DNA from: a virus
Direction: 5' to 3' (one strand)
Virus record (IMG/VR): IMGVR_UViG_3300035490_000323
Coordinates: 13,999-77,998 of that record
Length of the DNA stretch: 64,000 nt
Below the pieces are notes generated by a model. It was given only the letters and a program-made list of their open reading frames with translations. It made no database searches and was not told the origin of the DNA. Numbering within the stretch: position 1 is the stretch's first letter; each line of letters opens with the position of its first letter. A program made the translations under genes and the position numbers. Shown here piece after piece: positions 11,678-37,987 of this stretch.

Positions 11678-11832
11678 GGCGTTCTCCTTGAGGTGATAAG
11701 CTCCACCGAGTCGTTGGCGACATCGAAGGCGATGGCCACCACCGGCTCGTAGTCCCCTGTGTCCGGGTCGAATGCCCTTACCTCCAGGCCAGGGTAGTAC
11801 GACAGCATCCTGACTATGTCCGATGCCGTCAT
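11659..11832 (-). CDS. Hypothetical 57-aa protein (not in the ORF track)
   Basis: MTASDIVRMLSYYPGLEVRAFDPDTGDYEPVVAIAFDV...; ATG overlaps the cca stop. Confidence 0.45.
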   Translation of the reverse strand: MTASDIVRMLSYYPGLEVRAFDPDTGDYEPVVAIAFDVANDSVELITSRRTPCSEKP

Positions 11833-13277
11833 CCCCCCTCCCCTGTAGGGGGGCTAGGAAGGATGGGCCGGACGAGCTGGCCAGGGAAGACATACTCCAC
11901 CCCTTTCCTCAGCCTCTCCATCGCCTCCAGGGCCTCCTCGCGGGTGGATATCGTGCCCTCTAGCTGCATGTCCTCGATGTCCCCCAGGATTAGCTTGAAG
12001 CCCCTTCCCGGCTCCATCCCCATGGCTATCAGGTCGTCCCCCGTGGCCAGCCTCTCCGGGCGTATCTCCTCGGGGGTCAGCGACATGCAGTAGTCCAGCA
12101 TCTCGGTGTACTGCGCTGCCGCGTGGTCCCTGTAGTCCTTGCCCAGCTCCCCCTCCCCGTCCTCCTCGTCCTCCCTGCGCAGGAGGATGTCCTGCCTGGC
12201 CAGGACGACGCCGTTCCTGGCCCCCGGCGTGCGCATCAGCTTCTTGAGGCGGTAGCGGCTGTGGTTCTTGGGGTAGTAGTAGAAGTTCCCGTTGAGGAGC
12301 AGGTCCATGCGCACGTCCAGCGCCCCGCAGATGGCCCTGGCATGCTCCGAGGACAGCTTCAGGACATCCCTGCACAGGTGCTCGCTGTCCGTCTCGCAGG
12401 GGTCGGACCCGGCGAGCAGCATGGCCATCCCTAGGTCCTGGTCCGTGGTGGGGAAGGCTGCCAGCCTGTGCATGGCGTTGGCCAGGGAGGGCTTGACCGC
12501 CTCCCTGAAGGGCAGGTATTCGAGCAGCCCCGATGCCGCCAGGGCGGCCAGCCCGCCCGCAGCATTGGGGGACGCCACGAGCCTGAGCAGCTCCGCCGTG
12601 ACGCGCTCCACCGACACCCTCCTGATAAGGGGGGCGTTCCTCCTGATTGCGCCCAGGGTGCCCTGCTCTATCTGGAACCTGAGCTGGGCAGCGAACCTGC
12701 ACGCCCGCAGCATCCTGAGGGCGTCCTCCATGAACCTCTGCGTCGGGTCGCCGATGCAGCGGACGACCCTGTCCCTGATATCCCTGAGCCCGCCCACATA
12801 GTCCACGACGAGGCTGTCCCCGCCCGGCGCTGGCTGGATGGCAAAGGAGGTGCTCTGCGGCCCGCTGCCTGGGTGCCCCTCCGCCAGGGTCGTGCCGCCG
12901 TACGAGATAAGCAGCCCGTTCATGGTGAAGTCCCGCCTGGAGACGTCCTGCTCGGCGGTGTCGCTGTAGAAGACAATCTCGGGATGGCGGCCGTCCTCGT
13001 ACCTGCCGTCCGACCTGAAGGTGGCCACCTCGGTGTTCACCCCGCCGATGACCACGGTGACCACGCCGAAGGCCGCCCCGATGGGGACGGTCTTCTCGAA
13101 GAGGCCTATGACCTGCTCCGGGCGGGCATTGGTCGTGACATCGTAGTCCTTGGGCTCCCTGCCCAGGACGAGGTCGCGCACGCACCCGCCGACGAGGTAG
13201 GCCTCGAAGCCTGCCTCGCTGAGCGCCCTGATTACCTGCTCGGCCGCCTGCCTTGCCTCAGTAGCCATAGCCGACAT
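11829..13277 (-). CDS. cca: CCA-adding tRNA nucleotidyltransferase (class II, PolyA_pol family)
   Basis: AYLVGGCVRD...KDYDVTT, EVATFR, RRDFTMN and EDALRMLRACRF motifs. Confidence 0.9.
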   Translation of the reverse strand: MSAMATEARQAAEQVIRALSEAGFEAYLVGGCVRDLVLGREPKDYDVTTNARPEQVIGLFEKTVPIGAAFGVVTVVIGGVNTEVATFRSDGRYEDGRHPEIVFYSDTAEQDVSRRDFTMNGLLISYGGTTLAEGHPGSGPQSTSFAIQPAPGGDSLVVDYVGGLRDIRDRVVRCIGDPTQRFMEDALRMLRACRFAAQLRFQIEQGTLGAIRRNAPLIRRVSVERVTAELLRLVASPNAAGGLAALAASGLLEYLPFREAVKPSLANAMHRLAAFPTTDQDLGMAMLLAGSDPCETDSEHLCRDVLKLSSEHARAICGALDVRMDLLLNGNFYYYPKNHSRYRLKKLMRTPGARNGVVLARQDILLRREDEEDGEGELGKDYRDHAAAQYTEMLDYCMSLTPEEIRPERLATGDDLIAMGMEPGRGFKLILGDIEDMQLEGTISTREEALEAMERLRKGVEYVFPGQLVRPILPSPPTGEGG

Positions 13278-13919: not shown

Positions 13920-14129
13920 CTACCTTGTCTCCACCTTGTCGCAGCCGCACCTCGGGCATGTGAAGCGGCTGCCTATGGTGTCATGGCCCATGGTCGTCCT
14001 GACCTTGCCCTGCCAGGCGCAGTTCATGCAGTGGGCGTCCTGCACGTACGACTTCTTGCCCCTGCACTCCCCCATGAAGCACTTGTTGTCTATGACCTGC
14101 GGGCCTCTCTTGCCCTTCTTTGCCTTCAT
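13920..14129 (-). CDS. Small Zn-ribbon protein
   Basis: MKAKKGK...CMNC...CPRCG. Confidence 0.5.
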   Translation of the reverse strand: MKAKKGKRGPQVIDNKCFMGECRGKKSYVQDAHCMNCAWQGKVRTTMGHDTIGSRFTCPRCGCDKVETR

Positions 14130-18113: not shown

Positions 18114-19337
18114 TTACCACGTCTCCACTACCATAGTTCCCACGAAGTTCGTGGCCTGACCGCTGGTAGCAGACGCAAGGTTTCCGACGTAAACATAGAA
18201 CGTGCCCGAAGACATGTCTATGTTCGTGTCCCTGGTGGCGGCATTGTATGAGCTTCCAGCAAACGGCGTGCCGTTGACTACCATGGACACTATGTTGGAG
18301 CTGGAGCCCAGGACGTCGATAATAAACTCGAAGTAGTTTTCCCCAGCCCATAGGCCAGGCCCCGTGTTCGAAGCACCTAGTATAGTGGTGTAGGTCGTAT
18401 TGTTATTGTACTGGCTGTAGGCGTAGAACTCCCCGCTGCTGGGTATAGTCATCCCTAAGGTATAGCCATGCCCGGACGTGGACGTGGCGTCCTTGGATAC
18501 GTATAGGTCGTAATAAACGTAGGTGGCATTATAGACCATGTTCCAAGTCCACCTGATGCGGATGCGCTTGAACCCCGTGAAGCCCTGTACCGACTGATAC
18601 AGGTTCGTGCCGGAGAAGAAAGTTGCCGGGGAGTTCCAGGTTATAGCAGTCTCGGTGTAGCCTGATACGTGGCCGCTAGGTCCAGTGTATCCGGTATAAC
18701 CAGTGTAACCTGTGTATCCGCTATACCCCGTGGCCCCGTACCCGGTATAGCCTGTGAAGCTCCCTGGGCCTGTGTAGCCGGTGTACCCCGTCCCTCCTGG
18801 CCCCTGCTGGCCAGTGTAGCCTGTGAACCCTGTGTAGCCGGTATAGCCTGTGCCCCCAGGGCTTGCAGGGCCTGTGTAGCCGGTGTATCCTGAATATCCG
18901 GTGTAGCCAGTGTATCCCGGTCCTGTGTAGCCCGTGTAGCCGGTAGCGCCAGGACCGGTATATCCTGTGTAGCCTGAGTACCCTGTGTAGCCGCTACCAC
19001 CGATGTAGCCGGTGTATCCAGAGTAGCCTGTGAAGTTCCCAGGTCCCGTGTATCCTGTGTAGCCTGTGTAGCCTGAGTAGCCAGTGTAGCCGGAATAGCC
19101 CGTGAAGTTCCCTGGTCCCGTGTAGCCCGTGAACCCAGAATAGCCAGTGTAGCCAGAATAGCCGCTGTATCCGGTGTAGGCCCCGGTCCCCGTGTACCCT
19201 GTGTAGCCTGAGTATCCAGTGAAGTTGCCCGGACCTGTGTAGCCTGTGTAGCCAGAGTACCCCGTGTAGCCTGAATACCCCGTGTAGCCGGAATATCCGG
19301 TAGGGCCTCCGGGAGTGATAACGACGTTCTTGGCCAT
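18114..19337 (-). CDS. Collagen-like Gly-Tyr-Thr/Ser repeat fibre protein with a beta-rich C-terminal head
   Basis: About 210 aa of G-X-Y triplets (GYT/GYS/GFT), then an aromatic/Asn/Thr-rich globular domain. Confidence 0.8.
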   Translation of the reverse strand: MAKNVVITPGGPTGYSGYTGYSGYTGYSGYTGYTGPGNFTGYSGYTGYTGTGAYTGYSGYSGYTGYSGFTGYTGPGNFTGYSGYTGYSGYTGYTGYTGPGNFTGYSGYTGYIGGSGYTGYSGYTGYTGPGATGYTGYTGPGYTGYTGYSGYTGYTGPASPGGTGYTGYTGFTGYTGQQGPGGTGYTGYTGPGSFTGYTGYGATGYSGYTGYTGYTGYTGPSGHVSGYTETAITWNSPATFFSGTNLYQSVQGFTGFKRIRIRWTWNMVYNATYVYYDLYVSKDATSTSGHGYTLGMTIPSSGEFYAYSQYNNNTTYTTILGASNTGPGLWAGENYFEFIIDVLGSSSNIVSMVVNGTPFAGSSYNAATRDTNIDMSSGTFYVYVGNLASATSGQATNFVGTMVVETW

Positions 19338-19354: not shown

Positions 19355-20098
19355 CTATTTGCTTATCACGAACATCCCCTGCCCGTACGTGCTCGTGCCG
19401 CCAGAGTTGTTCCTAATATAGGTCTGGATTTGCCCGACCTCGCTGGCCAAGGACTGCGCGTAGCACAGCCCGCTCGGGGTATCCTTCCCACCTATGCCGC
19501 TCTCGTTGGGCAGGGCGGTGAACAGGCTCGTAAGGCCGCCGAAGGACGACGGGGTCCACGAGGGGTTGCTAAACCCGCCGTTGAAGTACCATTCCGTGGT
19601 GATTATGTAGTATGCGGGGCTCGGGTAGCTGACGTTCGCCCAGTACAGCGTCCCGTAGGCATAGGCGGCCAGGGTGGGGAAGGCTGCCGGGGTCCAGCTA
19701 TAGACGGCCGACGTCCCCTGAATCTCAATCACCGCGCCCACGTTCCAACCGTACCCGCCGACGTTATAGGGGTAGGGCCAGGCCGCGGACGGGAACACCC
19801 ATGCCTTGCCGTCGCCCGCCTGCACTATCCTGGTGCCGAGGTTGCACCCGGTGCTGGCCCCCGTGCCGTACGAGGGGGTCGAGGCCGTTACCGTCACGCC
19901 GCTGGGGAGCGGCGTCGTCGTCAGGGCAAGGCCGCTCCATATCGCTATGAAGAGGAGCGTGTCGCCCACTGTCGGGGTGCTGCCGAGGTTGACCGTGATG
20001 TTGCCGTTGAAGTTGAGAGCGCCAGCGGACTGGACCAGGACTGGCGTGGTCACATGCCTCCCGTACATCCCTGCGAGGATATGGGGCGCGTATGGCAT
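19355..20098 (-). CDS. Putative fibre-associated beta-rich protein
   Basis: Lies between two fibre genes; TP.LVQS...TPTVGDTLL pattern. Confidence 0.55.
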   Translation of the reverse strand: MPYAPHILAGMYGRHVTTPVLVQSAGALNFNGNITVNLGSTPTVGDTLLFIAIWSGLALTTTPLPSGVTVTASTPSYGTGASTGCNLGTRIVQAGDGKAWVFPSAAWPYPYNVGGYGWNVGAVIEIQGTSAVYSWTPAAFPTLAAYAYGTLYWANVSYPSPAYYIITTEWYFNGGFSNPSWTPSSFGGLTSLFTALPNESGIGGKDTPSGLCYAQSLASEVGQIQTYIRNNSGGTSTYGQGMFVISK

Positions 20099-22458
20099 TA
20101 TGTCTTGGACCAGCTCCCCGACAGCACGAACGCCGTCCAGTGGTTCGATGCATCGCAGACTATGCCGATGGCATCGCCGGCCGCCCCGGCCGAGGCGAGC
20201 GTCCCGGCAGAGGAGCCGTTCACGCCGTACAGGGCGGCGGTATTGGAGGCCGCCATCTGGATGGTCATCGCCGACGTGATTCCCGCGTAGTTGGCATAAA
20301 TCCTCTGCATCCCCGCCGTGCCCGCAGGGGCATCGAAGGTGATGGTGCCGTAGTTGTTGAAGATGTAGTAGTCCACCCCGCCAGGGTCCGCCACCGGCCC
20401 TGCCGTGCCCTGGACGAGGGTAGGGACGGCGGATATGGAGGCACCGACAGGGCCAGTATAGCCGGTATAGCCTGAATATCCCGTGTAGCCTGAATAACCT
20501 GTGTAGCCTGAGTATCCTGTGTAGGCTGTGTAGCCAGTGTAGCCAGTGAAGCCCGTGAAGTTCCCAAGGCCGGTGTATCCCGTGTAGCCTGAGTAGCCCG
20601 AATACCCTGTTATGCCTGGACCTGTGTAGCCTGTGTAGCCTGTGTAGCCTGAATAGCCTGTGTAGCCTGAGTAACCTGTGTAGCCTGTACGCCCTGTGTA
20701 GCCCGTATATCCAGAGTATCCGGTGTAAGCTCCCGGTCCTGTGTAGCCTGTGTAGCCTGTGTATCCTGAATAGCCAGAGTAACCTGTGTAGCCCGTGATA
20801 TTAGGACCAGTGTAGCCCGTGTATCCAGAGTATCCTGTAAAGTTCCCCGGCCCCGTATAGCCTGTGAACCCAGAATAGCCCGTGTAGCCTGAGTATCCGC
20901 TGTAGCCTGTATCACCCGTATAGCCGGTAGAGCCCATCCCCCCGACCATGAACAGCCCGAAGTGCCCGTCATAGACCGTGAAGACCGCGTCTGCGGTGCT
21001 GCTGGTGACCCGTAGGTCAAAGACGTCCCCGAGGCTGGCGTTGATGATATCGGCCATGGCGGCGGCCTTGTACTCGCCGCTGCCCAGGCCGCTTACCACC
21101 GCCTCGTCACCGGCAATCTCCAGGCTGTTCTGGAAGAAGGCGATACGGAAGTCCGCTCCCAGGTCCCCTATGGTCGAGAGGACGGCGAAGAGCTTGTAGC
21201 TCCCCGGCTGGAGGACGGTAAGGCTGCTCCCGTCTACGCCGACACCCACCCTGTCGATGGTGCCTATCGTCCAGATGCCGCTTATCTGATAGAACTGGTT
21301 GGCATTGACGACTGTGGTCCCGGAGACGTTGGACTGGGTGTAAAGCTCCCCGAAAGCGCTGCCGGGCTGGAACCCCGTATACCCCGTGGACCCAGTGAAG
21401 TTGCCTGGGCCAGTATAGCCGGTGTAGCCTGAGTATCCAGTGTAGCCTGAGTATCCGCTGTATCCTGAGTAGCCCGTATAGCCGCTGTCGCCTGTAAACC
21501 CCGTGTATCCCGAGTAGCCTGTGAACCCGGTGAAGTTCCCCGGCCCGGTGTAGCCCGTGTAGCCTGTTATGCTGGGCCCAGTATAGCCTGTGTATCCAGA
21601 GTAGCCTGTGGCTCCTGTAGATGCCGCCTGGCCCGCAGGGCCGGTATCCCCGGAGTACCCCGTGTACCCGCTGTAGCCCGTGAACGCTCCGGGCCCGGTG
21701 TAGCCTGTATCCCCGTAGCCTGTGTATCCAGTGTAGCCAGTATCACCAGTGTAGCCAGTGTAGCCGCTATAGCCGGTAATGTTCGGGCCTGTATAGCCCG
21801 TGAAGCCCGTGAAGTTCCCCGGTCCAGTGTAGCCGGTGTAGCCCGAGTATCCAGTGTAGCCAGAATAGCCGCTGGGCCCGGTAAAGTTCCCCGGTCCAGT
21901 GTATCCCGTGTAGCCGCTGAAGCCCGTAAAGTTCCCTGGCCCGGTAGGGCCGGTATGCCCCGTGTAGCCTGAATACCCCGTGTATCCAGAATAGCCCGTG
22001 AACCCGGAATAGCCCGTAAAGTTGCCGGGACCGGTATCACCAGTGTAGCCCGTGTATCCCGTATATCCAGAGTAGCCGGAATAGCCCGTGTATCCCGAAT
22101 ACCCTGTGAAGTTCCCTAGCCCCGTGTATCCAGTGTAGCCCGTGATGTTCGGGCCGGTGTAGCCCGTGAACCCTGTGCCCCCCGTGTAGCCCGTGAAGCC
22201 CAGCCCGGTGTATCCCGAGTACCCCGTGGCCCCCATTATCCCCTGGGACAGGAAGCCCCACCAGGGGGAGTTCACCTGCGGGACGTTGCCGGTGTTGCCC
22301 GGCTTCAGGGATATCCAGGAGTTGCCGTTCCAGGTGGCCACATGGTACTGCGGGTAGGTCTTGCTGGCGTTCCAGGGCGTGATGAAGGTCACCACCACCC
22401 CGCTGCTGCTCACGGTCGTCACGGAGGGGATAGACGGGTTGATTATGCCCTGTGCCAT
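20098..22458 (-). CDS. Collagen-like GYT-repeat fibre with N-terminal CBM5/12-like module and internal C1q/BclA-like domain
   Basis: WNASKTY...V.WNGNSW.S...GNVP...WW; two long G-X-Y tracts flanking SAFGELY...PGSYKL...GDVFDLRV. Confidence 0.75.
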   Translation of the reverse strand: MAQGIINPSIPSVTTVSSSGVVVTFITPWNASKTYPQYHVATWNGNSWISLKPGNTGNVPQVNSPWWGFLSQGIMGATGYSGYTGLGFTGYTGGTGFTGYTGPNITGYTGYTGLGNFTGYSGYTGYSGYSGYTGYTGYTGDTGPGNFTGYSGFTGYSGYTGYSGYTGHTGPTGPGNFTGFSGYTGYTGPGNFTGPSGYSGYTGYSGYTGYTGPGNFTGFTGYTGPNITGYSGYTGYTGDTGYTGYTGYGDTGYTGPGAFTGYSGYTGYSGDTGPAGQAASTGATGYSGYTGYTGPSITGYTGYTGPGNFTGFTGYSGYTGFTGDSGYTGYSGYSGYSGYTGYSGYTGYTGPGNFTGSTGYTGFQPGSAFGELYTQSNVSGTTVVNANQFYQISGIWTIGTIDRVGVGVDGSSLTVLQPGSYKLFAVLSTIGDLGADFRIAFFQNSLEIAGDEAVVSGLGSGEYKAAAMADIINASLGDVFDLRVTSSTADAVFTVYDGHFGLFMVGGMGSTGYTGDTGYSGYSGYTGYSGFTGYTGPGNFTGYSGYTGYTGPNITGYTGYSGYSGYTGYTGYTGPGAYTGYSGYTGYTGRTGYTGYSGYTGYSGYTGYTGYTGPGITGYSGYSGYTGYTGLGNFTGFTGYTGYTAYTGYSGYTGYSGYTGYSGYTGYTGPVGASISAVPTLVQGTAGPVADPGGVDYYIFNNYGTITFDAPAGTAGMQRIYANYAGITSAMTIQMAASNTAALYGVNGSSAGTLASAGAAGDAIGIVCDASNHWTAFVLSGSWSKT

Positions 22459-24573: not shown

Positions 24574-24590
24574 GCTTAGGATAATACCAG

Positions 24591-24900
24591 CCTGCGGGCC
24601 TGTAAGCCGAATTTTGTGCCCGGCCAGGGCCAGGCGACAGCCATTCGTCTAGGGCGGCCGTTGCCGGACGCCTCAAGCTCGCTACCCGAGGGTCGTGGCG
24701 GCCCGAGCAGGGCCTCCCCTCCTATTTGCGATTGCTCCCCGTAGAGATTGCCCGTTTCACACCGGACCTAACCGGCTCGTCTCTGTTGCTCTAATCGTCA
24801 CGCCCGGAGGGCATGCCGGGGCGTTACCCCGTACGGCGCTCTATGGAGTTCGGACTTTCCTCCCCCCCGTTGCCGGGGCGGCGGCTGTCCGGCCCGCAGG
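24591..24900 (-). ncRNA. rnpB: RNase P RNA (about 310 nt)
   Basis: Minus strand carries GAGGAAAGUCCG (CR-I), AGAGCAACAGA, GUGAAAC, AUGGCUGUC and ACAAAAUUCGGCUUA (CR-V); ends CCUGCGGGCC / GGCCCGCAGG form P1. Confidence 0.95.
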
Positions 24901-25328: not shown

Positions 25329-25682
25329 TGGTGGAGGCGTCGGGAGTTGAACCCGAGTCCGAAGAGTTCCACGACCAGGAGACTACACGCTTGTCCGGTT
25401 CCTTCTCGCCTTGCTCCAGGCCCCTATGGACTCCGGCAATCACAGGGCCCGTCCGCATGCCTTGTCTCGCCACGGGAGCGGCAAGCATCCCCTGGCCAGC
25501 CTCCCAATCGACGCCTGGCCCCCGCCCGAAAGGCGGAAGCGGGGCAGGCGGCCTAACCCTAAAGGTTAAGCAAACGCATACTGCATGTTGGCAGTTGCTA
25601 ATCCCATCCCTGTTACGGTCGGCATGGGGCCACCGGCGTGCCTCCTAGCTATGGGCGCTCCCGTCGATTCCGATACGCCCCC
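25329..25682 (-). ncRNA. ssrA: tmRNA, tag peptide (A)ANMQYAFA*
   Basis: 5' GGGGGCG...GAAUCGAC; 3' CUCGGGUUCAACUCCCGACGCCUCCACCA with G3:U; resume codon GCC at 25592, stop at 25568-25566. Confidence 0.95.
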
Positions 25683-25847
25683 GGAGACTGACTACTGCTG
25701 CTGCAAGCTGTAGGGCCGCCTCTAAGCCGCCACATCGCGCTGAGCCATTCTTCCATGGGCCCCTCGACTTTAGGCAGCGTGGTTGAGCAGCGGCCCCACT
25801 ACTACGAGAGGGGACGGGGGCTCGGACCCCGAATGCTTCCCCCCTGC

Positions 25848-25857
25848 TATATAATAC
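25848..25857 (-). promoter_or_regulatory. Putative -10 box GTATTATATA driving the tmRNA/RNase P unit
   Basis: Identical to the box at 28988-28997. Confidence 0.55.
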
Positions 25858-25866
25858 ACTGGAAAT

Positions 25867-25959
25867 TGGTCCCGGTGCTGGGAGTCGGACCCAGTCCATT
25901 CCCTAATCTGGGGATTCACGGTTTATAAGACCGCTCGTTCGGCCGCAAACTTCACCGGG
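25867..25959 (-). tRNA. Atypical tRNA, UAU anticodon (Ile, AUA) with long variable arm
   Basis: Acceptor CCCGGUG/CACCGGG-A-CCA; anticodon arm GCGGU-CUUAUAA-ACCGU; extra arm UCCC-CAGAUUA-GGGA; T-arm CUGGG-UCCGACU-CCCAG. Confidence 0.75.
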
Positions 25960-25965
25960 AAGGAA

Positions 25966-26042
25966 TGGCAGCGTAGACCGGGCTTGAACCGGCTATTGCC
26001 CTGGTTGAAGGCCAGGGGACTCGACTCTTCGTCTTCTACGCC
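25966..26042 (-). tRNA. tRNA-Glu(UUC), atypical D-arm, C33
   Basis: CCUGG-CCUUCAA-CCAGG; T-loop UUCAAGC; CCA encoded. Confidence 0.85.
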
Positions 26043-26205: not shown

Positions 26206-26280
26206 TGGAGGCGCAGGGGAGAATCGAACTCCCGCTTAAAGGTTTTGCAGACCTCTCCCTTCCCACTTGGGTACTGCGCC
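26206..26280 (-). tRNA. tRNA-Cys(GCA)
   Basis: Cloverleaf, loop CUGCAAA, U73, CCA. Confidence 0.95.
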
Positions 26281-26286
26281 GAATCC

Positions 26287-26361
26287 TGGAGGCCCGAGAG
26301 GGAATCGAACCCTCGCGTAGCGGTTTTGCAGACCGCCGCCTTGCCACTTGGCTACCGGGCC
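26287..26361 (-). tRNA. tRNA-Cys(GCA)
   Basis: Cloverleaf, loop CUGCAAA, U73, CCA. Confidence 0.95.
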
Positions 26362-26666
26362 AATACCTTCCTGGACCCGCCCTGCTCCCGCTCGAAGCCG
26401 TGCTCCCAGAGCCGGTGCGAGTCCTCCCCGAGCATCTCGGGGGTATAGTCGTTGTCGAAGAACCAGCGGACCAGGTGCGTCCTCGGGTACCGCTTGAACA
26501 GCTCCTCGAAGCACTCGAAGGTCAGGCGGTCCAGGAACTCCTCCGGCACGTAGCAGTGCTCCTTGTCCCAGGCCTTCCCAATCTCCTTCGTCCACCAGTC
26601 CCAGTTGAGCTTCCCGCGCAGGTACCGCATGAGAAGCTCGGGCTCCCGGCAGCCCTCCTCGGGCAT
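26352..26666 (-). CDS. Hypothetical protein inside the tRNA array (true start may be further upstream)
   Basis: 104-aa ORF; the frame stays open upstream past 26800. Confidence 0.5.
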   Translation of the reverse strand: MPEEGCREPELLMRYLRGKLNWDWWTKEIGKAWDKEHCYVPEEFLDRLTFECFEELFKRYPRTHLVRWFFDNDYTPEMLGEDSHRLWEHGFEREQGGSRKVLAR

Positions 26667-26855
26667 CCTCCCGTGGGTCTCGCAGCTAAAGCAGCACTCG
26701 CCGCCGCTGAGCCCGCCCTCCCTTAGCGGGGGAGGGGTCGTGTTGGTCCGGTCCCACTGCTGGCCTGTCCATGGGGTGGAGCACCTGCTCCACCTTAGGT
26801 AGCTTCCAGCAGTTCTAGGTACCTCTTGGTCAGCCTCATACGGGCCTCACGGGCT

Positions 26856-26931
26856 TGGTAGGGTAGGCGGGAATCGAACCCGCAATCTCCTGGTTGAGGG
26901 CCAGGTGACTTAACCGTTCGTCTACTACCCC
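26856..26931 (-). tRNA. tRNA-Glu(CUC), C33
   Basis: CCUGG-CCCUCAA-CCAGG; CCA. Confidence 0.9.
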
Positions 26932-26938
26932 GGAAACT

Positions 26939-27015
26939 TGGTAGCGTCGGTGGGATTTGAACCCACGGTTTGAGCCTTGAGGGGGCCCCGTCCTAGGCCG
27001 CTAGACGACGACGCC
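26939..27015 (-). tRNA. tRNA-Glu(CUC), C33
   Basis: GGGCC-CCCUCAA-GGCUC; CCA. Confidence 0.9.
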
Positions 27016-27196
27016 ACAATCCCTGCGGCAATGGGCAGCGGCCTCGCATCGGGAAGGCACCTTCCGGTGGACCAGTATGGCGTAGCCGCATGGCGGCATC
27101 CCGTTCCCTTCGCCTGCAAGTCCTTCGCATCCGCTGCCAGCTTGCAGCCTCCGCAGAGCTTGGTGGCCTCGGGGGTTTCCCCCTCCGGCCGCAGCT

Positions 27197-27272
27197 TGGT
27201 GGAACCGGTGGGAGTTGAACCCACAACCCCTAGACTGCCAGCCTAGTGCTCTCCCAGTTGAGCTACGGTCCC
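27197..27272 (-). tRNA. tRNA-Ala(GGC)
   Basis: G3:U70; loop CUGGCAG; CCA. Confidence 0.95.
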
Positions 27273-27407
27273 GAATTTCGCCCCAGGGGGACTTGAACCC
27301 CTCTCCCACGGTCGCCTGCAAGCTCGCATGGTTGCCCCCCCGCTAGCGCCTGCTCGGCACAGGGAGGAGGTTGCAGCCCCCTCCCCAGCCTCGGGGGCTG
27401 AGGAACT

Positions 27408-27482
27408 TGGTGCGTCCTACAGGAGTCGAACCTGTCGCTCCTTCTGTGTCAGAGAAGGCGTCTACCGCTGGCATAAGGACGC
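27408..27482 (-). tRNA. tRNA-Val(GAC)
   Basis: CUUCU-CUGACAC-AGAAG; CCA. Confidence 0.9.
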
Positions 27483-27488
27483 TGAACT

Positions 27489-27566
27489 TGGCGGGTACGA
27501 CGAGATTTGAACTCGCGGTCTCCTCCGTGACAGGGAGGCGAGCACTCCGGGCTGCTCCACGTACCC
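27489..27566 (-). tRNA. tRNA-Asp(GUC)
   Basis: Loop CUGUCAC; G73; CCA. Confidence 0.95.
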
Positions 27567-27573
27567 GTGAACT

Positions 27574-27647
27574 TGGCGGTCCTAGCGAGACTCGAACTCG
27601 CTTTTCATCCGTGACAGGGATGCGTAATACCCATATACCATAGAACC
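27574..27647 (-). tRNA. tRNA-Asp(GUC)
   Basis: Loop CUGUCAC; G73; CCA. Confidence 0.9.
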
Positions 27648-27653
27648 GAAAAA

Positions 27654-27791
27654 CTAATTGGGGGCCTTCTTGCCCCCCTGCTTTGCCTTGCGGGCACCCT
27701 TCTTATGACCGGCCGGGTAGGGCTTGACCCGCCTCTGGCACATCTCACACCCTGCAACATGGCCATGCCGGTTGGCATGAGCGTTCCCCAT
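27654..27791 (-). CDS. 45-aa basic peptide inside the tRNA array
   Basis: GGAG Shine-Dalgarno; MGNAHANRHGHVAGCEMCQRRVKPYPAGHKKGARKAKQGGKKAPN. Confidence 0.45.
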   Translation of the reverse strand: MGNAHANRHGHVAGCEMCQRRVKPYPAGHKKGARKAKQGGKKAPN

Positions 27792-27810
27792 CAGGGTCTC
27801 CGATAAAACT

Positions 27811-27886
27811 TGGTGGAACCGATGGGAGTCGAACCCACAACCTCAGCATTGCGAATGCTGCGCTCTCCCAGTTGAGCTACGGTCCC
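27811..27886 (-). tRNA. tRNA-Ala(CGC)
   Basis: G3:U70; loop UUCGCAA; CCA. Confidence 0.95.
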
Positions 27887-28001
27887 GTTCGGGGACTCCG
27901 GGCGGTTACTCCATCGTCCCACAGGTCCAGTCTCTTAGGCCCCGGTCGGGGTAGGCCACCGCAGCCCCCCCTACAGGGGGCCTAGAGGGCTGAACCGTTC
28001 T

Positions 28002-28076
28002 TGGAGCGGGTAGCCGGACTCGGACCGGTCTTCTCTGGCTTGGAGGGCCAGGGCACACCCCTTATACCATACCCGC
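28002..28076 (-). tRNA. tRNA-Gly(UCC), C33
   Basis: CUGGC-CCUCCAA-GCCAG; U73; CCA. Confidence 0.9.
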
Positions 28077-28193
28077 AATCTCTCCAGGATAGCCTTGCCA
28101 CGGCCAGAAAGTAGCGGACTGCACGCCGGTTGCTACGCCTGCGCCCAGCCGGTAGCAACTACCCCCTGACCTTCGCAGGGCTACCCTGAAACT

Positions 28194-28267
28194 TGGAGCG
28201 GGCAGCCGGACTCGGACCGGCTTCGCTGGCTTGGGAAGCCAGGGCACAGCCCATATACCATGCCCGC
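28194..28267 (-). tRNA. tRNA-Gly(CCC)
   Basis: CUGGC-UUCCCAA-GCCAG; U73; CCA. Confidence 0.9.
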
Positions 28268-28336
28268 AAATACCAATGGGTGCCTATTTGGAAAGTGTGA
28301 CCCGCAGGTCAGCCATTAAGTCATGACACCCAATCT

Positions 28337-28415
28337 TGGTGGACCATGTGGGGATTGAACCCACCTGCTATCTGCATTGCAAGTGCAGCGACCACCCCGT
28401 GCAGTCCCATGGCCC
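28337..28415 (-). tRNA. tRNA-Ala(UGC)
   Basis: G3:U70; CUGCA-CUUGCAA-UGCAG; CCA. Confidence 0.9.
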
Positions 28416-28493
28416 ACGAGGCCATGCCCGATGCCAGGGGCTTTTGCGGCACTAAGCCATTTCGCCTTTGGGCACCAGCATGGTCCCGGAACT

Positions 28494-28570
28494 TGGAGCG
28501 GCTGGAGGGATTCGGACCCTCGACCTCTTCCTTGGCAAGGAAGCATTCTACCGGGCTGAACTACAGCCGC
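28494..28570 (-). tRNA. tRNA-Gly(GCC)
   Basis: CUUCC-UUGCCAA-GGAAG; U73; CCA. Confidence 0.95.
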
Positions 28571-28653
28571 TCAAAAACTAATGTGGCAAGCAGGACTCCC
28601 ACCTGCCGTGGCTGTGACCCTCAAGCCTCCCTTTCCATTGCCACAAGCTAGCT

Positions 28654-28729
28654 TGGTGCCCTCGGCAGGGTTCGGACCTGCGCCCTCTCGCGTGTGAAGC
28701 GAGCGCTCTAACCGCTGAGCTACAAGGGC
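28654..28729 (-). tRNA. tRNA-Val(CAC)
   Basis: CUCGC-UUCACAC-GCGAG; CCA. Confidence 0.95.
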
Positions 28730-28735
28730 CAATCT

Positions 28736-28813
28736 TGGTACTCCGGGAGGGACTCGAACCCCCGAGTTGGTTGCTTGTAGGGCAACTGGCTTAGCCGCTC
28801 GCCGCACCGGAGT
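28736..28813 (-). tRNA. tRNA-Val(UAC), C33
   Basis: GUUGC-CCUACAA-GCAAC; CCA. Confidence 0.9.
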
Positions 28814-28825
28814 AAAACTCTCTGG

Positions 28826-28853
28826 AAACAAAAATGGCACCCTTTCGGGTGCC
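28826..28853 (-). terminator. Intrinsic terminator of the tRNA-array leader (attenuator terminator)
   Basis: GGCACCC-GAAA-GGGUGCC followed by AUUUUUGUUU, 13 nt before the first tRNA. Confidence 0.85.
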
Positions 28854-28875: not shown

Positions 28876-28971
28876 TTACTGCCCAGCGCCTCCCGAAGGC
28901 GAAGTATCGCCCTCACACCCGGCGGCCACTGCCGCTATGACATCGACTTCCGTTATGTGTAGGGCCAGCAT
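28876..28971 (-). CDS. 31-aa leader (sensor) peptide MLALHITEVDVIAAVAAGCEGDTSPSGGAGQ
   Basis: GGAG Shine-Dalgarno; sits between promoter and terminator; codons 8-22 all match tRNAs of the array. Confidence 0.8.
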   Translation of the reverse strand: MLALHITEVDVIAAVAAGCEGDTSPSGGAGQ

Positions 28972-28987
28972 CTTCGCTCTCTCCACC

Positions 28988-28997
28988 TATATAATAC
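28988..28997 (-). promoter_or_regulatory. Putative -10 box GTATTATATA of the tRNA operon
   Basis: TATTAT hexamer upstream of the leader Shine-Dalgarno; same box at 25848-25857. Confidence 0.6.
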
Positions 28998-35746: not shown

Positions 35747-36401
35747 CGCTTCCCTCTCCTGTCACGCCTGCCTCCTCTGTTTTCTCCGGGCAGGGGGGGG
35801 CGCTTCCCTTAAGGGTTCTCTTAAGGGTTGATTGAAGGTGTTCTATTAAGGGTTTAGGTGGTTTAGGACCACTACCCCAGGGGTTTATAACCCCTACCCC
35901 AGTGGTCCTAAACCACCACCCCAGTGGTCCTAAGCCACTACCTGGGTGGTCCATAACCCCTACGTGGTGGTCTATAGCCCCCACCTCGCCTGCCGCCCAG
36001 GCGGGGTGGGCGAAGAGCAGCGTCCTGCCCGGCACCCTCTGGGTCCAGCCCTCGAACGCCTTGACCCCCTGCCTGTACTCTGCCTGTGCCTCCGGTATGT
36101 CCACCACTCCCCGCAGGGAGTACCTGTTGCTCCCCTGCCACCCAGGGCGGCTGCTGTTGCACTGCCCCTCCGCCGTGGTCACGAGGTCGAGCGCCCACAG
36201 CCACCTCATGGCCCTGATGACCGCCTTCCTGTCTATCCCCCCCAGCCTGTCCGCCAGGTCGCGGTAGGACGGCCAGCAGGCGTTCTCCGTGCTGGCCGTC
36301 CAGCACAGCTCCCAGGCCACGGCCCTCAGGGTGCCCAGGTCAACCCCAGGCACGGGGGGCAGCAGGGTGTAGTGCAGGGCGTCTGTGTGTCTGTTGCTCA
36401 T
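35724..36401 (-). CDS. Winged-HTH replication initiator-like protein
   Basis: CWPSYRDLADRLGG.DRKAVIRAMRWL...SNRY; internal DNA repeats; next to the helicase. Confidence 0.7.
   Translation of the reverse strand: MSNRHTDALHYTLLPPVPGVDLGTLRAVAWELCWTASTENACWPSYRDLADRLGGIDRKAVIRAMRWLWALDLVTTAEGQCNSSRPGWQGSNRYSLRGVVDIPEAQAEYRQGVKAFEGWTQRVPGRTLLFAHPAWAAGEVGAIDHHVGVMDHPGSGLGPLGWWFRTTGVGVINPWGSGPKPPKPLIEHLQSTLKRTLKGSAPPCPEKTEEAGVTGEGSDGGTADA
35808..35965. repeat. Iteron-like direct and inverted repeats (candidate replication origin)
   Basis: ACCCCAGTGGTCCTAARCCACYACC twice in tandem plus a degenerate third copy; inverted copy GTGGTTTAGGACCACT; three TTAAGGGTT repeats in an AT-richer flank. Confidence 0.65.
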
Positions 36402-36406
36402 CTTGC

Positions 36407-37987
36407 CTAGTATTGCGGCATGTCGTCCGCCAGGTCCCCGAAGACGCGCACCTCCGCCACGGCCTGGGCCGAGGCGGCTATCCTCTCGCCGGATGCGTCC
36501 TCGTCCTTCAGGGTGAACGCCCCGGTCGGCTGTAGCGTCATGGTGACGGCCGGCGGCTGCCTCCCCTCGCGCTTCTTGATGCACGCGACCTCAATCTGCC
36601 CGCTGGTCTTCATGTCGCTGTCGGACCAGACCGTCAGGATGAGGTCCATGTCGTCCTTAAGCTCGCTGTAGGTCCTGATGGCCTCAAGGGTATAGTGCCC
36701 CTGCCCCTCCTTGAAGTCCCCCTTCATGGCCTCCTTGTACGACTCCTTGGTAATCTGCACGGGGCTCACCACCATCAGGCCCCTGGCCTCGTCGAAGTTC
36801 CTGGTCATCTTCTGGATGCGGTGGATGAGGTCCCTCATCCCCTGGTCCTTCCAGCGGGGGTCGCCCGGTATCTCCATGCGGGTGATGTAGTCCAGCACCA
36901 GGAAGTCGTACCTGTTCTTGCCGTTGTAGACGGCCATCCAGTCGGCGATGGTGTCCCAGTCCCGCGAGGGGAACTCCTTCACCTCCAGCTTCCCCGGCAG
37001 GTTCCTGCGGTTCTCCAGGTCGAAGGTGACCTGCCGCATGAACTCGATGTCCGCCGGGGTCACCCGCTTGTCGTCCCAGGCCTTGGGGATGGGCAGTATC
37101 CTGCCCTCGTACTCGGGGCGGGTCGAGTGCAGGTAGGTCATGGCGTCCCATACCTGCCTGGGCGTGTGCTCGGTGGAGACATAGAGGCCGTTGGCCCCCT
37201 GCTTCAGCCAGTTATAGGCTATGAAGTTAGCCAGGGACGTCTTGCCGTCCCCGGCCTGCCCCACTATCCCTATGAACCTTAGCGCCTGCCTGCCGACCAT
37301 GAGGCTGCTGTCCAGGTGCTCTATCCCCAGGGCGAAGCGCCCCGTCGCCGCCTTCTCGTCCATCCTGTCCGAGAACCCCTCGCGCACCGCCTGCATGTTC
37401 TCGTGCAGGAAGCCGTCCACGGGCGGGGACTCGTCGGCGAAGTCCTTTGTCCACTGCATCCTCAGCCACTTCATGGCGGCGGCAGGGCCACGCTCCTCCT
37501 TCTTGTCCTTCCCCTCGCGCCACTCGAACGCCGCCAGCCCGTTGGCAATCCTCCCGGCCTTGTCGTACAGGGCGGAGTGCCAGGTGCCCCGCACCTTGGA
37601 GAAGGTCTTCTCCAGCAGGACCAGGGTGTCCATGCCCCTCAGGGACCCCACCGGGGGCTCCCATCCCCCCTTCAGCAGGTCAAGCTGCTCCGTCACCCTG
37701 GCCGAGTCACCCCTCCCCTCGTCCCCCTGGGAGAACTCCTGGAGGTAGTCGGGGTTGCTGATTACGTAGTCCTTTACCCCCCCTGCCCCGGCGGGCAGGG
37801 AGCCGAACTTCTCGATGTACTTCCACACCGCCCTGAGGGTGGCGCTGGTCACTACCTCGTCGCTCCCCGGCACCCAGTCGCATATGCCGGAGAAGTGTAC
37901 CGTCCAGGCCAGCTTCTTCTTGTTCTGGAGCACGAAGGGGTATAGGTCCTGCGTGCAGAGACGCCGGGTAAGCTCAGAGATATACAT
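36407..37987 (-). CDS. DnaB-like replicative helicase
   Basis: Walker A GQAGDGKTS, YVSTE, LVLDY, SPVQ, D.DLIL and K.REG motifs. Confidence 0.85.
   Translation of the reverse strand: MYISELTRRLCTQDLYPFVLQNKKKLAWTVHFSGICDWVPGSDEVVTSATLRAVWKYIEKFGSLPAGAGGVKDYVISNPDYLQEFSQGDEGRGDSARVTEQLDLLKGGWEPPVGSLRGMDTLVLLEKTFSKVRGTWHSALYDKAGRIANGLAAFEWREGKDKKEERGPAAAMKWLRMQWTKDFADESPPVDGFLHENMQAVREGFSDRMDEKAATGRFALGIEHLDSSLMVGRQALRFIGIVGQAGDGKTSLANFIAYNWLKQGANGLYVSTEHTPRQVWDAMTYLHSTRPEYEGRILPIPKAWDDKRVTPADIEFMRQVTFDLENRRNLPGKLEVKEFPSRDWDTIADWMAVYNGKNRYDFLVLDYITRMEIPGDPRWKDQGMRDLIHRIQKMTRNFDEARGLMVVSPVQITKESYKEAMKGDFKEGQGHYTLEAIRTYSELKDDMDLILTVWSDSDMKTSGQIEVACIKKREGRQPPAVTMTLQPTGAFTLKDEDASGERIAASAQAVAEVRVFGDLADDMPQY

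Follow-up and report, generated by a model that had tools for sequence, protein, structure and literature searches.

The 93-nucleotide (nt) gene on the minus strand at positions 25867-25959 of a 64,000-nt stretch of phage DNA (IMG/VR record IMGVR_UViG_3300035490_000323, positions 13,999 to 77,998; the whole stretch is hereafter called the window) is, judged by comparison with its relatives, a real and conserved tRNA gene. Its product is likely to be a working elongator tRNA of a peat or soil jumbo phage, decoding AUA as isoleucine (Ile) with a UAU anticodon that TilS cannot modify. Among the sense codons AUA alone obliges bacteria to keep an essential enzyme of its own, TilS, because isoleucyl-tRNA synthetase (IleRS) accepts a plain UAU anticodon poorly and such an anticodon can misread AUG. 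The layout that best fits the RNA, here called tRNA(UAU), is a five-way junction with two consecutive anticodon-type arms and, after them, a variable loop of the ordinary kind. The second of the two arms, the GAU arm, presents GAU at the centre of a 7-nt loop, and we suggest, as a possibility that we regard as doubtful, that IleRS may read this non-decodable arm while the ribosome reads the UAU arm, so that identity would be split from decoding.

ARAGORN calls a tRNA-Ile(tat) with exactly the limits 25867-25959 on the minus strand, and our own covariance model (R1) scores the gene at 117 bits. Read on that strand, the acceptor 5' strand CCCGGUG (25953-25959) forms 7 base pairs with CACCGGG (25871-25877), beyond which lie A73 (25870) and an encoded CCA (25867-25869). 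A8 and A9 (25951-25952) stand between the acceptor and a compact D arm, GUUUG-CGGC-CGAAC (25937-25950), which has five pairs including one G.U, contains U12-A23 and keeps GG in its 4-nt loop, CGGC. The anticodon arm GCGGU-CUUAUAA-ACCGU (25918-25934), with UAU at 25925-25927, has the canonical U33, A37 and A38. From the anticodon stem to the T stem there are 23 nt, which include the extra arm UCCC-CAGAUUA-GGGA (25900-25914; GAU at 25906-25908) and a 5-nt linker, AUGGA (25895-25899), of class I variable-loop length. In the T arm, CUGGG-UCCGACU-CCCAG (25878-25894), C55 replaces U55. An initial annotation made from the letters of the window had listed the 7-bp acceptor, A8, the 5-bp D stem with its 4-nt loop, the UAU anticodon, an extra region of about 23 nt, the loop UCCGACU and A73, and had called the compact D arm Sec-like; every one of these elements is correct, and the shape of the D arm is confirmed.

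The same annotation had proposed a covariance search for homologues. Compensatory changes are seen in all five helices, both in four distinct orthologues (the window gene and those of loci L246, L017 and L238) and in 41 members of a wider family. In the four orthologues 104 of 104 cells hold standard pairs, and double-sided changes affect 8 of the 26 pairs, compared with 0-1 in controls with slid partners. Two pairs of the D stem have changed on both sides and two of the T stem show compensatory change, acceptor pair 6:67 is U-A in the window gene and C-G in L017, and the extra-arm stem occurs as UCCC/GGGA, GCCC/GGGC and GCUC/GAGC, the third pair from the loop being a constant C-G. In an alignment of the 41 family members fitted to the covariance model, pairing holds in 97.6% of cells and the covariation score reaches 0.825, compared with at most 0.145 in slid controls. 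The T loop is UUCGACU in L017 and L238; C55 is common to the window gene and L246.

The L017 phage, whose ribonucleotide reductase (RNR) is 72% identical to that of the window, has the same order of GNN tRNAs, Cys tRNA, tRNA(UAU), transfer-messenger RNA (tmRNA) and RNase P RNA. Pattern scans brought up further orthologues in L246 (from peat) and L238, as well as copies identical to L017. Three peat or wetland DNA assemblies depart from the window solely in the spacers that flank the gene and nowhere inside the tRNA. The neighbouring metallophosphatase gene, used as a probe for relatives, led to two distant loci only, and blastn of the RNA island against GenBank phages returned short generic tRNA matches only.

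No Rfam family matched at the tRNA(UAU) gene at gathering thresholds. At relaxed thresholds selenocysteine tRNA (tRNA-Sec) is the best of the tRNA clan, at 37.5 bits against a cut-off of 47. The 8/5 fold of tRNA-Sec is rejected by pairing and covariation, the branch being 7/5, the anticodon UAU (not UCA) and the discriminator A73 (not G73). An 8/4 fold was likewise rejected; it would put A.G (in L017, A.A) at the eighth position of the acceptor, and pair 49:65, at the outer end of the T stem, changes from C-G to U-A, which supports a T stem of 5 bp. With the canonical elongator tRNAs (RF00005) the gene shares stems of 7 bp (acceptor), 5 bp (anticodon) and 5 bp (T), G53-C61 and a 7-nt anticodon loop that has U33 and a purine at 37, and all of these helices covary; it departs from them in A8, in the 5-bp, 4-nt-loop D arm, in C55 and in scoring below the family cut-off.

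The geometry shows that the extra arm is no variable arm of the class II type. Among 150 tRNAs for Ser, Leu and Tyr from the fetched loci the variable-arm loop is mostly 4 nt (3-5), the 3' linker is 1-3 nt, and GAU falls within the loop in 3 cases, whereas in long UAU tRNAs the extra-arm loop is 7 nt and the 3' linker 5-6 nt. The window gene has the 7-nt loop and a 5-nt linker, a UAU anticodon and no G73, and the ATA codons it would read stand for Ile. Nor is the arm likely to be a spliced intron, a case that had been named as fatal to the tRNA interpretation, because it is about 15 nt long, lies in the variable region and has a stem that covaries as a retained structural element would; the intron reading was rejected.

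The codon usage of the phage points to a need for such a tRNA. In 52 open reading frames (ORFs) chosen by a filter on third-position GC (GC3) and comprising 22,025 codons, Ile is encoded by 323 ATA (14.7 per 1000), 449 ATC and 86 ATT. In ORFs of at least 200 amino acids ATA makes up 39% of Ile codons, compared with an A-ending share of 1-16% in the other boxes; the GC3 of the genome is about 88%, and L017 shows the same tendency towards ATA. Acidobacteriota loci around family members have 2.3 ATA and 3.7 AGG per 1000, so that ATA use in the phage is about six times higher. AGG accounts for 56% of Arg codons in the phage (37 per 1000), and GTA and GCA are moderately raised.

The initial annotation had suggested that the residues aligned to ATA codons be checked in conserved phage proteins. 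Of the 11 ATA sites in the class II RNR, aligned with 113 homologues (the closest at 96%, 91% and 89% identity), 8 have Ile as the majority residue and the others Val, Thr or Leu, with Ser at 0, and the pattern of residues is that of the ATC sites. The CCA-adding enzyme has an Ile majority (73-80%) at 3 of 5 ATA sites, and its pooled Ile fraction is 0.51 at ATA sites and 0.42 at ATC sites. There was no excess of Leu at the ATA sites of either protein. These alignments show ATA treated as Ile in the phage proteins, and any other charge on an active tRNA(UAU) would therefore corrupt 1.5% of all codons. Because ATA aligns to Ile and never to Ser, the gene is to be read as an AUA/Ile decoder and not as a Leu- or Ser-type class II tRNA. 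The suggestion of a TilS-independent AUA reader thus becomes the most likely one; its stated alternative, a Leu-like tRNA or one charged with another amino acid on account of A73 and the long arm, is not supported, given the geometry of the arm, its conserved GAU hairpin tied to the UAU anticodon, the absence of Ser and the lack of excess Leu. An AUA reader of this kind would account for an ATA frequency in the GC-rich phage about six times that of its likely hosts.

Relatives of the GAU arm were sought by two scans of opposite design. The variable-region scan required the 18-nt anticodon arm, in one sequence, and a long variable region of free content; the reverse scan required CAGAUUA, a spacer and one common T-loop sequence and left the anticodon arm free. 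A set of 83 loci chosen with CAGATTA in the pattern has an invariant loop by construction and was not used for family statistics, and since family members are phylogenetically related the counts given here are not independent events. Nine tRNA-Ile(UAU) genes of IMG/VR phages, 74-96 nt long and including class I versions, match the 18-nt anticodon arm exactly. The variable-region scan yielded, among the matches listed, to which its counts refer, at least 62 distinct variable regions of long-armed UAU tRNAs. A hairpin with a 7-nt loop and central GAU was found by the parser in 39 of the 62 and by eye in about 4 more (about 43/62). The loop consensus of the 39 is Y-A-G-A-U-N-R, with flanking positions that vary: position 33 is A in 37, position 37 is U in 24, G in 9, C in 5 and A in 1, and a purine stands at position 38. 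All 39 have a 3' linker of 5-6 nt. The third stem pair, equivalent to 29:41, is C-G in 32 of the 39 and, when the 41 members are aligned to the model, in 37 of 39, compared with 14 of 28 anticodon arms of phage tRNA-Ile(GAU) and 94 of 918 other tRNAs.

The reverse scan returned at least 129 distinct sequences, in which UAU was scored automatically in 107 and, after inspection by eye, in about 125; the remainder are chance matches, and none of the 129 sequences listed has another anticodon in a proper hairpin. Taken together, the scans show by sequence association that the GAU arm is coupled to the UAU anticodon and occurs almost only with it. A73 is present in 67 of 68 family members, and the GAU arm is found with both compact and normal D arms. 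Members without annotation were met in the Synechococcus phages S-SRM01 and S-SKS1, and the copy in Sinorhizobium phage Phosso is annotated as tRNA-Ile. Derivation of the extra arm as a recent copy of the arm of a co-resident tRNA-Ile(GAU) was rejected, stem identity being mostly 2-5 of 10 with no consistent similarity.

Two other groups of genes were seen beside this family. A second set of long-armed UAU tRNAs (L205, L218, L181, L211, L216 and L222; 87-90 nt) has the extra loop C-U-N-R-C-A-A with AAC, CAC, GAC or CGC as its central triplet, a loop that looks Val-type and does not hold GAU. Some of the arrays in which a GAU-arm tRNA(UAU) is found contain, besides it, 'tRNA-Ile(GAU)' genes of class I length whose sole anticodon loop is C-(U/C)-G-A-U-U-A (L238:5364-5437, L251:4090-4165, L271:3292-3367, L145:5218-5291, L190:11659-11732, L376:1900-1974 and L112:5424-5497); with U37 and sometimes C33, this loop resembles that of the extra arm.

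CheckV puts the source contig (77,998 bp, 64% GC) at about 25% completeness, so that it represents part of a jumbo phage genome of some 300 kb. Nineteen metagenome runs from peat, wetland and soil each contain half or more of the words drawn from its RNA-gene island. The UAU arm together with the CAGAUUA motif was found in 25 contigs of bacterial genomes, at least 21 of them from Acidobacteriota (Terriglobia, Bryobacterales) and several from the same peat habitat. In most chromosomal acidobacterial copies the T loop and the D loop are aberrant, and ARAGORN does not detect these genes; L248, L253, L260, L263 and about 15 more have a common upstream flank, the T loop GGCAGCA and a D loop without GG. 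Judged by their sequences, these chromosomal copies are probably the published allo-tRNA(UAU). Two contigs of Bryobacterales have a phage-like copy within a large tRNA array, and a 1.6-kb contig binned into a metagenome-assembled genome (MAG) of Terriglobia is nearly identical to the tRNA(UAU) gene of L017. Among named cellular homologues of the CCA enzyme of the phage, the nearest comes from a MAG of Acidobacteriia. From the habitat, the distribution of the motif, the binned contig and the CCA-enzyme homologue we infer that the host belongs to the Acidobacteriota (Terriglobia).

The mechanism that we favour would run as follows. The phage would use ATA as a major codon in hosts that use it rarely and depend on TilS and lysidine. 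Transcription of the phage tRNA operon would end with tRNA(UAU), which would carry A73-CCA and be charged by the host IleRS, and would thereby supply AUA decoding independently of TilS to a phage with an ATA demand far above that of its host. TilS is present in five Acidobacteriota genomes that have an RNA of the family, and neither IleRS nor TilS was found in the phage contig, which covers about 25% of the genome. Bacterial Ile identity comprises A73, C4-G69, U12-A23, bases of the D loop, C29-G41, G or L at 34, A35, U36, t6A37 and A38 (PMC9976931). According to Taniguchi et al. (2013, PMC3575796), the IleRS of Escherichia coli charges a UAU anticodon poorly, and its Trp905, equivalent to Trp890 of the S. 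aureus enzyme, stacks onto the wobble base; Mycoplasma mobile has Arg at this position. The one acidobacterial IleRS examined keeps the R-C-W motif and hence the Trp. A plain UAU anticodon may thus not suffice, because IleRS charges it poorly and the enzyme of the candidate host keeps Trp. An IleRS with Trp at the wobble-contact site would read the identity elements poorly on a U34 anticodon; the GAU arm, with GAU at the loop centre, a C-G at the equivalent of 29:41 and a purine at 38, may supply them, and it could be reached if two arms of the five-way junction exchange places on the D stem.

The identity elements are divided over the molecule as follows. A73 and U12-A23 are present (the latter is G-C in L238), whereas G4-C69 stands in place of C4-G69, and G16, U20 and U21 are missing from a D loop that is just CGGC. 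The decoding arm has U34, A35, U36, A37 and A38 but G29-C41; the extra arm has G, A and U at the anticodon positions, A38 and C29-G41 but A33 and U37.

A number of observations weigh against parts of this proposal, and they are given here with the alternatives to which they belong. The arm in particular raises difficulties. The anticodon-binding part of IleRS is beyond the reach of an arm that springs from the variable region, unless the two arms swap places; the stems of the extra arm are unlike those of co-resident tRNA-Ile(GAU); and its loop is unfaithful to an Ile anticodon loop, with A33 in 37 and A37 in 1 of the 39 members among the matches listed, while t6A37 is a determinant for bacterial IleRS (PMC9976931) and A37 is what the loop avoids. 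About a third of the long-armed UAU tRNAs among the matches listed, including the CUNRCAA set, lack a GAU loop, and the identical anticodon arm also occurs in class I tRNA-Ile(UAU) genes that have no extra arm, so that the arm is not universally required. The unfaithful loop, the arms without GAU and the class I genes agree with a tRNA that works on AUA and Ile while its GAU arm has nothing to do with IleRS, which we regard as quite possible and rank a little ahead of an arm read by IleRS. The arm might then stabilise a five-way core that goes with the reduced D arm, tune ribosomal accommodation against the misreading of AUG by U34, serve as a recognition site for a modification enzyme or a phage protein, or protect from a host anticodon nuclease. 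Misreading of AUG by an unmodified UAU anticodon is indeed a known problem (Taniguchi et al., PMC3575796). Yet a purely structural or kinetic role leaves unexplained an invariant GAU amid varying neighbours and the constant C-G at the equivalent of 29:41, and the arm is also present with normal D arms and is therefore not a compensation for the compact one.

The tRNA itself may also be questioned, and the support for the host on which the charging step leans is indirect. The gene combines C55 and A8 with a lack of C4-G69. In one metatranscriptome assembly there are exact contigs at 25339-25736 and 26931-27193 and none over 25867-25959, a gap that proves nothing either way, DNA carry-over being possible in that assembly. 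Six variants of allo-tRNA(UAU) with UAU changed to CUA failed to insert Ser in the Ser146 chloramphenicol acetyltransferase (CAT) assay in E. coli, and two were lethal (PMC5389517). Together with the GGCAGCA T loop, the GG-less D loop and the missing ARAGORN calls of the chromosomal acidobacterial copies, the contig gap and the inactive variants suit an RNA that acts off the ribosome, as a regulatory RNA, a tRNA-like RNA linked to a mobile element or a toxin-antitoxin system, or a decoy that binds IleRS or a defence nuclease. We find this improbable. The phage copy keeps the 7/5 acceptor-T branch, U33, A37, G53-C61, A73 and an encoded CCA, it lies in an operon of ordinary tRNAs, and the phage uses ATA about six times as often as its candidate hosts; moreover, the published assay scored Ser at a site that requires Ser, and Ile insertion would therefore have scored as inactive. 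A recoding tRNA, charged by leucyl-tRNA synthetase (or by the Ser, Tyr or Val enzyme) through A73 and the long arm and reading AUA as another residue, is very improbable. The length is class II-like and A73 is the discriminator of Leu, Val and Tyr as well (PMC9976931), but ATA falls in columns rich in Ile (80-98%), with Ser at 0% and Leu at 13-16% as at ATC sites, and another residue at 1.5% of codons would damage the phage proteome. The usual Ser discriminator G73 is absent, the D loop has none of the Leu tertiary elements, and the geometry of the arm is unlike that of the 150 Ser, Leu and Tyr tRNAs. Least probable of all is a decaying copy that has lost its function, as C55, A8 and the shrunken D loop might signal. 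U55 and U8 are nearly universal in tRNAs and both are replaced here, and a neighbouring Glu(UUC)-like gene has C33. C55 is nevertheless common to L246, on a contig of 53% GC (64% in the window), and is for that reason a trait of the lineage and not decay; A8 and the compact D arm are found in all four orthologues, with compensatory changes, and environmental populations vary in the spacers and not inside the gene.

A working AUA/Ile tRNA also fits the setting of the gene, which is apparently the last of a tRNA operon. Upstream of it lie 15 canonical tRNAs (26206-28813, minus strand; ARAGORN, Rfam). The array serves every GNN box (Val, Ala, Asp, Glu, Gly), has Cys twice and the UAU tRNA, and contains nothing more; several of its tRNAs form near-duplicate pairs, and its order is syntenic in L017, L243 and L244. 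Just upstream of the UAU tRNA is a tRNA-like Glu(UUC) gene with C33 in place of U33 (25969-26042, minus strand), which Rfam scores at 33.9 bits and ARAGORN does not call; its counterpart in L017 has U33.

The array is preceded by a 31-codon leader ORF (28876-28971, minus strand) that has two ATA codons and one TGT in a run of GNN codons, such that codons 8-22 are all GNN, ATA or TGT; in the L017 leader the codons ATA and TGC each occur twice. The leader ORF is separated from the first tRNA by a terminator-like hairpin, GGCACCC-GAAA-GGGUGCC, with a U-run (28826-28853, minus strand), and a comparable hairpin and U-run are present in L017. The initial annotation had taken the two ATA codons of an attenuator leader as a sign that the tRNA is functional. 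The leader and the hairpin that follows it are there, in L017 as in the window, and the support they lend to function is circumstantial.

The motif GTATTATATAG occurs exactly twice in the window, against 0.11 expected, and each copy heads an RNA-gene unit on the minus strand: one (25847-25857) begins 9 nt past the UAU tRNA, ahead of the tmRNA, and the other (28987-28997) lies ahead of the leader ORF and the tRNA array. A related motif is found at the place equivalent to the leader ORF/array copy in L017. The copy at 25847-25857 is probably a promoter element of the next transcription unit. It is followed by the phage tmRNA (25329-25682, minus strand; ARAGORN, and Rfam at 116.9 bits), with the tag ANMQYAFA, over which the metatranscriptome has an exact 398-nt contig. 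Further on are a bacterial class A RNase P RNA (24587-24900, minus strand; RF00010, 187.7 bits), also present in L017, and a gene of the CCA-adding enzyme/poly(A) polymerase family (11829-13277, minus strand; PF01743, PF12627). RNase P RNA, tmRNA and CCA-adding enzyme are thus all encoded by the phage in the window, and L017 has the same set. A literature search yielded no report of an RNase P RNA encoded by a phage.

Elsewhere in the window, ARAGORN calls of Ile(tat) and Leu(tag) at 35852-35971 are false positives inside a 22-nt iteron array. The region 35803-35963 has four 22-nt tandem iterons and three copies of GTTCTNTTAAGGGTT beside a DnaB-like helicase gene (36407-37987), and may be a replication origin. 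Two ORFs, at 18114-19337 and 20098-22458 (minus strand), contain collagen triple-helix repeats (PF01391) and probably encode fibre proteins.

If the proposal is true, a UAU tRNA that is widespread in phages and has a conserved decoy of the normal Ile anticodon arm would be a third natural solution for AUA, after lysidine or agmatidine and the enzyme change of M. mobile, and phages and some Acidobacteriota would decode AUA without TilS or an adapted IleRS. Isoleucylation of the GAU-arm scaffold is then predicted to be independent of the anticodon, and the published allo-tRNA(UAU) RNAs would gain a translational explanation. A scaffold whose charging is independent of the decoding anticodon would be of interest for sense-codon reassignment. 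Standard finders miss or mislabel GAU-arm tRNA(UAU) genes, and phage tRNA inventories and codon-usage analyses are therefore incomplete.

In the literature the nearest relative is the allo-tRNA(UAU) that Mukai et al. described from Acidobacteria (2017, Nucleic Acids Research 45:2776, PMC5389517; reviewed in PMC7609411). Compared by published description, the window gene belongs with this subgroup in its UAU anticodon, its long, Sec-like D stem with a tetraloop, the extra arm that gives a five-stem junction and its soil or peat, acidobacterial context, and it is a sub-threshold look-alike of tRNA-Sec, which is how Mukai et al. found allo-tRNAs (PMC5389517). Unlike allo-tRNAs at large, which have an 8/4 or 9/3 acceptor branch and mostly G73 or U73 (Ser identity), it has a 7/5 branch and A73; and unlike allo-tRNA(UAU), the phage copy has a near-canonical T loop and lies in a tRNA operon of an ATA-rich phage. 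Mukai et al. noted possible five-stem junctions and suggested a non-translational role, and their main text mentions neither the GAU loop, IleRS nor Ile identity (PMC5389517).

The class I tRNA-Ile(UAU) genes of phages have the identical 18-nt anticodon arm and the same kind of place in phage tRNA arrays, and differ in having no extra arm and a normal D arm. tRNA-Sec (RF01852) and class II tRNAs are alike in their length of about 90 nt and in a helix between the anticodon and T arms, and tRNA-Sec in its compact D arm with a 4-nt loop as well; the window gene, however, has neither the 8/5 branch, UCA nor G73 of tRNA-Sec and scores below the Rfam cut-off, and class II tRNAs (Leu, Ser, Tyr) have arms with 3-5-nt loops, 1-3-nt 3' linkers and no conserved loop sequence. 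The tRNA-Ile2(UAU) of M. mobile, described by Taniguchi et al. (2013, PMC3575796), likewise reads AUA as Ile with a UAU anticodon that TilS cannot modify, and poses the same problem of U34 recognition by IleRS. That tRNA is an ordinary class I cloverleaf, and the solution lies on the side of the enzyme, with Arg865 in place of the conserved Trp, whereas the IleRS of the candidate host keeps its Trp and it is the tRNA that adds a GAU arm.

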